64,000 nt of DNA from Flavobacteriales bacterium (GTDB taxonomy: Bacteria; Bacteroidota; Bacteroidia; Flavobacteriales_F; PHOS-HE28), in NCBI GenBank assembly GCA_016718655.1, contig JADKCV010000015.1, positions 26,963 to 90,962 on the forward strand. The letters are read 5' to 3'. The notes under the pieces were generated by a model. That model did no database searches. It was not told the DNA's origin and was given only the letters and a program-made list of their open reading frames with translations. Both the position numbers and the translations under genes were made by a program. Below, piece by piece: positions 30,620 to 31,179 of this stretch; positions within the stretch are counted from its first letter, which is position 1; each line of letters begins with the position of its first letter.

Positions 30620-30796
30620 CTAACGGTATCCGTTGATGTATGCATTGGCGATGATCTCACTTTCGCGGATCAGCCCTTGCACGATCTCTCGGATCACGTC
30701 GTTCAGCTGTTGGTCCGTATACCGGTTCAGGTCTTGGTACACGTGCGTTTTGCGCTTGCTGCTCTTGATGAAGGCTATCTTATCCTTCTTCGTCAT
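30620..30796 (-). CDS. 58-aa lysine-rich hypothetical protein
   Basis: MTKKDKIAFIKSSKRKTHVYQDLNRYTDQQLNDVIREIVQGLIRESEIIANAYINGYR; AT-rich codon choice against a 60% GC background argues for selection; sits downstream of a structured leader with terminator. Confidence 0.4.
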   Translation of the reverse strand: MTKKDKIAFIKSSKRKTHVYQDLNRYTDQQLNDVIREIVQGLIRESEIIANAYINGYR

Positions 30797-30840
30797 GGGA
30801 CCTTCTACGGCAACCCCGGGCGAAAGGATCCATTCCGCTG

Positions 30841-30879
30841 CAAAAAAGTCCGGACGCCCTACGGCAACGGGCTTTCCGG
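30841..30879 (-). terminator. intrinsic terminator (possible attenuator) 45 nt upstream of the 58-aa ORF
   Basis: Minus strand CCGGAAAGCCCGUUGCCGUAGGGCGUCCGG hairpin (9 bp with bulge) followed by ACUUUUUUG. Confidence 0.6.
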
Positions 30880-31100
30880 AAACACGAACAGCGGTCTGCC
30901 GCATGGAGGACCGCTGTTCGCGAAGGCACTTCGGGAGGTCAACCAAGGGCAGGACGAGGTGTGTTTCGCAATGCATAAATGCGACCCAGGGTCCGCAGGT
31001 AACGATCAACATCGCCGACCAGCAACAAACGCTTGGCCTGGCGCTTCAACAACTCGGGGGTGATGGTCGGGGTATCCATGGTGTGTCGATGATGTTGATC
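30880..31100 (-). promoter_or_regulatory. structured leader / candidate cis-regulatory RNA (16-bp long-range inverted repeat 31003-19/31085-100, hairpin 30889-30916, optional 46-aa ORF 31079..30939)
   Basis: Inverted repeats read directly from the sequence; region divergent from udk. Confidence 0.35.
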
Positions 31101-31179
31101 CTACCATTTCAAGCGGCGTGCCAAACTCCTCGAAGCCCTGTTCCGGCGCGGTTGTATCCGGACCGCTACTTTTGCGCGG

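Follow-up and report, generated by a model that had tools for sequence, protein, structure and literature searches.

A compact pair of conserved small protein genes with two non-housekeeping promoter-like signals in uncultured Flavobacteriales

Promoters related to the signals considered here have been mapped experimentally in Flavobacterium psychrophilum, among them promoters of the -24/-12 kind and others of ECF type whose -10 box reads CGT (PMC9723704). The -24/-12 promoters of this species drive chaperone and envelope-stress genes, and leaderless transcripts make up 5.5% of its mapped mRNAs (PMC9723704). ECF-sigma promoters, as outlined in the portion of PMC9723704 that cites Staron 2009 and Helmann 2002, combine a -35 GGAAC element and a -10 CGT element across a 16-17-nt spacer. 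At the level of translation, Bacteroidota starts usually follow an A-rich leader with a purine at -3 according to PMC6847099, and PMC6847099 and PMC3155529 describe Shine-Dalgarno sequences as largely unused in this phylum.

Here we analysed a 560-bp region divergent from udk within a 64-kb stretch of DNA (64,000 nucleotides, hereafter the window), which a preliminary description had presented as a highly structured leader with an internal terminator upstream of a 58-aa ORF, and hence as a candidate attenuator or riboswitch. The hairpins, the U6 tract and the two ORFs were all found where that description had placed them, all on the minus strand (Table 1). For comparison, 80 species-level loci were fetched, 81 with the window included, and in most species synteny with udk-nadD-gmk is preserved. 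On balance we favour, with somewhat more confidence than doubt, reading the region as two separate small protein genes in tandem, ORF46 and ORF58, and not as one gene with a regulatory leader. In this sense the locus is a compact small-gene pair whose products are uncharacterised and which carries two promoter-like signals of non-housekeeping type.

Table 1. Features of the ORF46-ORF58 locus and its neighbours, in window coordinates
Feature	Coordinates	Strand	Basis or position
udk	31180-31827	+	upstream neighbour, divergent from ORF46/ORF58
TGGCACGCCGCTTGA word, sigma-54-type -24/-12 promoter motif upstream of ORF46	31109..31123	-	motif search
Long-range 16-nt inverted repeat, ORF46 5'UTR x codons for VGDVDR	31004..31100	-	duplex energy
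ORF46, conserved 46-aa protein	30939..31079	-	jackhmmer, codon periodicity
P1, long GC-rich hairpin, 13-14 bp, 12-nt loop, then UGUUUCC	30884..30921	-	fold, covariation
P2 hairpin (UCCGGA..GCCC / GGGC.UCCGGA) + C + U6, intrinsic-terminator-like	30842..30880	-	fold
Bipartite box TGGATCC-TTTC-N12-CCGTAGAAGG, candidate ECF-sigma-type promoter of ORF58	30801..30832	-	alignment
ORF58, 58-aa, three-helix protein (predicted)	30620..30796	-	homologues, codon periodicity, AF2
Strong hairpin + U-rich tail after ORF58, terminator-like	30541..30586	-	fold, inverted repeat
Convergent 214-aa ORF	29882-30526	+	downstream neighbour of ORF58

Two conserved small ORFs

As previously noted, ORF58 opens with an ATG at 30796, 45 nt after the T-run. 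Its homologues form 135 clusters, with 76-100% identity among the 120 matches listed, and all of them come from uncultured Flavobacteriales or Bacteroidota, the ones with a named source being uncultured Flavobacteriales; when 1.8 billion representatives were searched exhaustively with a profile, only 28 matched, so the family is narrow. Differences at codon positions 1, 2 and 3 amount to 0.08, 0.02 and 0.29, respectively, and identity across species reaches 86-98%, compared with only 59-88% for udk. The synonymous difference is 0.29 in ORF58 and 0.46 in udk, and stands at 51% of comparisons in ORF46; ORF58 is more conserved than the neighbouring housekeeping enzymes, synonymous sites included. 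The atypical AT-rich codons formerly attributed to ORF58 were a misreading, as its GC3 is 0.76 against 0.68 in udk, and its lower overall GC follows from its amino-acid composition. Low synonymous change combined with this GC3 suggests either a strong codon bias, of the kind associated with high expression, or additional constraint on the nucleotide sequence itself. Longer gene calls of 67-102 aa exist for this ORF, and they share no conserved N-terminal residues, which shows the 58-aa reading to be the right one. The predicted structure consists of three helices (AF2, pLDDT 94), and searches of families (Pfam, NCBIfam), solved structures and folds gave 0 matches and no functional lead.

Downstream of ORF58, a hairpin with a T-rich tail follows in 77 of the 80 loci; in the window the segment 30530-30625 contains an inverted repeat and folds with -39.9 kcal/mol (z = -3.8). 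This hairpin would be a terminator common to ORF58 and the convergent gene. The latter, a 214-aa ORF, matched nothing in Pfam or NCBIfam; it was detected in 17/81 loci, window included, with 27-54% identity, and usually adjoins a trypsin-like protease gene. Distant ORF58 homologues were also seen on AT-rich contigs (L087:2934-3000, L090:371-437, L093:330-390), where they are stand-alone genes separated by 60-66 nt from a divergent gene, with neither ORF46 nor the GGATC/CGT box described below; these three spacers have in common the word ATATT(C/G)TA(T/A)CAT(A/G)(A/G)CTTTACAA.

ORF46 had been regarded as optional, but in a jackhmmer profile search of upstream ORFs, 76 of the 80 species loci had a homologue of it immediately before ORF58. 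In pairwise comparisons across loci, the core of ORF46 differs by 0.37/0.25/0.49 at codon positions 1/2/3, and the non-coding stretches upstream show no codon periodicity; ORF46 is a conserved gene. Like the 58-aa peptide, the 46-aa one has conserved homologues in related species. Public annotations list ORF46 as a hypothetical protein, Pfam and NCBIfam searches with it returned 0 matches, and its predicted fold is a helical hairpin of two helices (AF2, pLDDT 81). ORF46 and ORF58 are adjacent and in this order in 77/81 loci, which makes some co-transcription by read-through plausible and counts against two fully separate units.

The preliminary description had offered as its alternative that both ORFs are pieces of a single frameshifted gene of about 165 aa, and in the window an in-frame 130-aa ORF (30620-31012) does overlap the spacer between them. 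The comparison across species leaves this remnant with virtually no chance of being real, and we consider it refuted: an uninterrupted long ORF is found at none of the 80 orthologous species loci, the spacer differs in length between loci (63 to 317 nt) and has no codon periodicity, the 67-102-aa gene calls lack conserved N-terminal residues, and in ten loci one extra nucleotide stands between the box and the ATG. ORF46 and ORF58 are each under purifying selection independently, with separate codon periodicities.

Promoter-like motifs upstream of ORF46 and ORF58

The word TGGCACGCCGCTTGA, upstream of ORF46, is the only perfect sigma-54-type match in the 64-kb window; other sigma-54-like words there all lie within coding regions and were discarded. 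Allowing up to 2 mismatches, TGGCACG-N4-TTG is present in all 77 loci with ORF46, perfectly in 53, and in 75 of the 77 it ends 22-41 nt before the ORF46 ATG. Measured against the sigma-54 consensus TGGCACG-N4-TTGCW, the site has the -24 GG and -12 GC elements at fixed spacing, with the C of the -12 element often replaced. The ORF46 leader is A-rich and has a purine at -3 in 65/77 loci. These features make the site promoter-like and a candidate sigma-54-type promoter, and since the -24/-12 promoters of F. psychrophilum drive stress genes, ORF46 may be stress-induced.

Two further observations concern words of this type. In L129 (L129:1225-1260) and the similar loci L130-L137, udk is missing and nadD runs in the same direction; in this lineage the U-tract of the nadD terminator hairpin is directly followed by the TTTTGGCACG of the sigma-54-type motif, and the ORF46-ORF58 spacer measures 72 nt, with an A-run at the position of the window's T-run. 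Six other loci (L017, L024, L029, L033, L035 and L053) have ORF46-ORF58 spacers of 265-317 nt that share the word GTGGCACGATATGTGTG, reminiscent of a second sigma-54 promoter -24 element.

The long-range inverted repeat that encloses the ORF46 start was confirmed in the window (31004-31019 / 31085-31100, 16 nt, 88% complementary), and the duplex between the 5'UTR and the ORF46 coding sequence reaches -24 kcal/mol (z = -3.5 against shuffled UTRs). It is identical in six assemblies of the same species. Over 77 loci the median z is 0.3, and only 2/77 fall below -2; the repeat is not conserved but species-specific. A 19-nt complementarity between ORF46 and the ORF58 3'UTR was rejected as not significant (z = -0.68) and not conserved.

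Upstream of ORF58, a box with the layout TGGATCCTTTT-N12-CCGTAGAAGG-N3/4-ATG is present in every locus with upstream sequence (80 aligned; also L058). By direct count in the alignment its halves are 16-17 nt apart, fixed within 1-2 nt, the CGT is invariant across the aligned loci, and the distance from the C of CGT to the A of ATG is 13 nt in 70 loci, 14 nt in 10 and 12 nt in one. Most species carry GGATC, and one subclade has GGAAC-N16-CGTT, the canonical ECF-sigma pattern; the box thereby combines a GGAAC-like -35 element and a -10 CGT at 16-17 nt. RNAalifold over 80 species found 0 pairs in it, and it is kept in three loci that have neither ORF46 nor the sigma-54 motif, one of which (L084) has a divergent upstream gene. 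This lack of RNA structure, together with the fixed geometry and the persistence without ORF46, points to a bipartite signal at the DNA level, most simply a promoter. By its sequence, the box would be an ECF-sigma-type promoter giving a nearly leaderless mRNA, given that a CGT 13 nt before the ATG places the mRNA start at or next to the start codon. The sequence upstream of ORF58 is not A-rich, with C at -3 in 62/81 loci. A sigma-A (TAnnTTTG) or a sigma-54 promoter was dismissed by inspection, as neither spacing nor sequence fits.

Several points count against this assignment. The GAAGG between CGT and ATG is invariant, which exceeds what a -10 element usually needs and speaks against a promoter; a Shine-Dalgarno-like or protein-binding role is conceivable for it. 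In addition, the 5.5% share of leaderless mRNAs in F. psychrophilum counts against a leaderless ORF58. An exact search of metagenomes gave 34 matches to the box, 12 of them before ORF58 and the rest resembling background, with none of the 34 upstream of any other gene; as the vicinity of the locus also lacks a cognate ECF sigma gene, a regulon finds no support here. A second box-like site in the window (43572-43602) lies inside polA and was put down to chance, a hairpin with GGATC in its loop, hinted at by several loci, did not stand out in a permutation test (z = -0.19), and short transcript-like contigs were uninformative as markers of the ORF58 5' end.

The conserved GAAGG could also act in translation. 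A ribosome-binding-site-sequestering hairpin, that is, a translational riboregulator, would pair CCUUU (30827-30823) with GAAGG (30805-30801) and AUGG with the CCAU of the start region, so that the Shine-Dalgarno-like AGAAGG and the ORF58 AUG would be hidden by a helix. This helix does appear in the window's minimum-free-energy fold and both of its arms are highly conserved; moreover, AGAAGG is presumably complementary in part to the 16S rRNA 3' end in Bacteroidota (...CCUCCUUUCU), which we count in its favour. The alignment nevertheless makes it very improbable, since 70.0% of cells are paired compared with 70.6% in column shuffles, double changes number 6 against 7.7 expected, no change in a single arm (AGAACCG, AGAAACC, GAAAGG) is matched by a compensating one and RNAalifold predicts no pairs. 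The limited Shine-Dalgarno use described for Bacteroidota in PMC6847099 and PMC3155529 is a further argument against it.

For the promoter that we favour within the ORF58 box, udk offers a parallel observation. A canonical Bacteroidota sigma-A -7 box, TACTTTTG (TAnnTTTG), lies at 31167-31174 (+), 5 nt before the udk ATG at 31180, which would yield a leaderless udk mRNA or one with a 1-nt leader; a box so close to the ATG makes near-leaderless starts plausible in this lineage. Related loci repeatedly show similar AAAGTAG words when read on the opposite strand.

Hairpins in the ORF46-ORF58 spacer

The hairpin P1, introduced in the preliminary description as a perfect 8-bp stem, is present but longer, with 12 perfect pairs (30885-30896 / 30909-30920), 13-14 in the fold, and a folding energy of -28.5 kcal/mol. 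When 27 species were aligned, pairing held in 91.8% of cells and 57 cells showed changes on both sides, a result that none of 500 shuffles equalled. The conservation of P1 as an RNA hairpin is genuine and includes compensatory changes; P1 is probably the terminator or 3'-end hairpin of ORF46. The GC-rich hairpin with U6 was likewise confirmed as P2 (30880-30849, -17.3 kcal/mol), followed by C and T6 (30847-30842), and was missed by a consensus terminator scanner because its loop has 9 nt. P2 and the A/T-rich tract that precedes the ORF58 box overlap, and conservation of P2 is limited to a 3-bp core, which together with P1 is all that the 27-species consensus fold retains. At the position of the window's U6, 40/80 loci have a T-run, 24 a mixed or A-rich tract and 16 neither; the feature conserved there is mainly A/T-richness upstream of the -35-like element and not a U-tract.

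Spacers of 63-72 nt (L040, L048, L129) contain no hairpin at all, which makes the hairpins dispensable. Terminator-like hairpins are found between the two genes in 65/77 loci, a count that includes matches inside the box and at the position of P0, a variable hairpin of related species. We read the hairpins best as the 3' end of the ORF46 unit, with partial read-through into ORF58 possible. The locus L084, which has no ORF46, keeps a P2-like hairpin and U-run, and P2 may therefore belong to the upstream module of ORF58 rather than to ORF46.

In about 48 related species, a nearly invariant GGTTTTGGTGAAAG stands between P0 and the conserved P1, some 130 nt upstream of the ORF58 ATG (for example L021:2365-2428, L028:2370-2431 and L083:2365-2430). 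A covariance model of GGTTTTGGTGAAAG with P1 gave one match per locus and none elsewhere in 528 kb, and a scan of related loci against Rfam found no match to the motif. The model does not match the window, where only a degenerate CTTCGCGAAC is present. P1 with GGTTTTGGTGAAAG is thus specific to the locus and better conserved than ordinary terminators, which counts against reading it as a plain terminator; in these sister species the motif is an unclassified conserved RNA element. Two loci (L024 and L029) carry a tandem duplicate of GGTTTTGGTGAAAG. A long-range helix between GGUGAAAG and the T-run plus CAC was rejected, as TTTCAC is by eye equally frequent with and without the motif.

Of the attenuator or riboswitch architecture once proposed for the region, the conserved helix P1 and the terminator-like hairpin with U6 upstream of ORF58 stand; the leader, the antiterminator and a conserved repeat do not. 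The supposed leader holds the conserved gene ORF46 with its own sigma-54-type motif, and the "internal terminator" is consequently the 3' end of a gene, the hairpins lying between two genes and not in a 5' leader. Alternative upstream helices did not emerge either: the P2 arms paired with upstream sequence no better than shuffles (z = +0.7 and +2.1), none of these helices is conserved, and no mutually exclusive antiterminator was found within the window. Nor does a terminator occur wherever ORF58 does, as shown by the hairpin-free spacers and by the T-run in 40/80 loci. With no antiterminator, an inconstant terminator and hairpins that follow a gene, the defining parts of an attenuator are missing. 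Among the inverted repeats and the terminator on whose conservation the proposal depended, P1 alone covaries; the long-range repeat is not conserved and the U6 hairpin is inconstant. Rfam searches agree with the earlier failure to place the region in a known class, as neither the window at the gathering threshold nor the region at E up to 10 gave anything relevant, including any known riboswitch class or RNase P, and no family was matched by 20 related loci at the gathering threshold or 12 at an E-value threshold. The region's only match, Thr_leader with 20 bits on the ORF58 terminator, was attributed to chance.

The hairpins could still be regulatory if the sigma-54 promoter drove both genes as an operon, with P1/P2-U6 as a partial or regulated terminator that sets the ORF58 output from stress-induced transcripts. 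Because no RNA switch is visible, a protein factor would have to be in control, and in the mRNA the box would serve translation initiation or bind a protein. This arrangement would suit the gene order kept in 77/81 loci, the fixed distances of the hairpins from the ORF58 ATG (about -88 and -52), the covariation of P1 and its inclusion, in about 48 species, in a motif found nowhere else in 528 kb. It is also consistent with the P2-like hairpin and U-run that L084 keeps without ORF46, and with the 166-nt spacer folding better than its shuffles (z = -2.47). We nonetheless hold it to be rather unlikely: the terminator has no competing helix in the window and none that is conserved, several lineages lack the hairpins, A-rich or GC-rich sequence stands in place of the U-tract at 40/80 loci, Rfam families gave no match, and ORF58 is found without ORF46 or the sigma-54 motif, distant homologues included.

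A bolder proposal, which we regard as distinctly improbable, makes the spacer a new lineage-restricted cis-regulatory RNA that would couple sigma-54-driven, stress-induced transcription of ORF46 to the expression of ORF58, with the box as an RNA or protein recognition site and not a promoter. Most related species would then have P0, GGUUUUGGUGAAAG, P1 and P2, the window being reduced to P1-P2; the invariant GGAUCCUUUU...CCGUAGAAGG box would be the recognition site, and the spacer RNA might be bound by ORF46 or ORF58, the two small helical proteins. We take the GGAUCCUUUU...CCGUAGAAGG box to resemble sequences of 16S rRNA h45 and the 3' tail; if true, this likeness would suit a ribosome-associated ORF58 regulating its own synthesis.

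Proposed organisation and comparison with known systems

Under the reading of two tandem genes, ORF46 would be transcribed from the sigma-54-type promoter (31123-31109) into an mRNA with a short A-rich leader, typical of Bacteroidota, and this transcript would end at the hairpins 3' of ORF46, P1 and/or P2 with U6. ORF58 would be driven by its own promoter inside the invariant box (30832-30801), parsed as ECF-sigma-type with a -35 GGA(T/A)C and a -10 CGT set 16-17 nt apart; its mRNA would start at the start codon or a few bases from it, being leaderless or nearly so, and would end at the strong terminator (30586-30541). The sigma factors acting, the starts and stops of the transcripts and leaderless translation are what we infer from the sequence comparison. 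If this reading holds, the gene architecture is ordinary and the locus adds no new attenuator or riboswitch. What the locus does define is two families of small, uncharacterised proteins in a Flavobacteriales clade that is abundant and uncultured, with many of the related genomes coming from activated sludge and freshwater, and it offers candidate sigma-54 and ECF-type, probably leaderless, promoters in organisms whose promoters are so far unmapped.

Compared with known systems, the locus resembles Rho-independent terminators and attenuators (trp, pyr, T-box, riboswitch platforms) in having GC-rich hairpins and U-rich tracts upstream of ORF58, and differs from classical attenuators in that these hairpins follow a real gene and come with no antiterminator, aptamer-like conserved junction or Rfam match. 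With respect to ECF-sigma promoters, the box differs in its prevailing GGATC instead of GGAAC, in the extra invariant GAAGG after CGT and in standing, among the exact metagenome matches, before no gene other than ORF58, and tblastn detected no ECF sigma or anti-sigma gene in the window or its flanks. It resembles them, and the flavobacterial motif SM6 in particular, in its bipartite build, fixed spacing and invariant CGT, in the GGAAC-N16-CGTT of one subclade, in the T-tract after the -35 element and in the A/T-rich tract upstream of the box. The constant 13 nt between CGT and ATG and the missing A-rich leader bring ORF58 close to bacterial leaderless mRNAs. As for the sigma-54 (RpoN) -24/-12 promoters represented by motif SM4 of F. 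psychrophilum (PMC9723704), the site before ORF46 departs from them in the -12 GC, whose C is here usually A or G (TTGA or TTGG), and in a spacing 1 nt shorter at some ORF46 loci; it shares with them the TGGCACG-N4-TTG, conserved in 77/77 loci, and a position that leaves a leader of roughly 20-25 nt.
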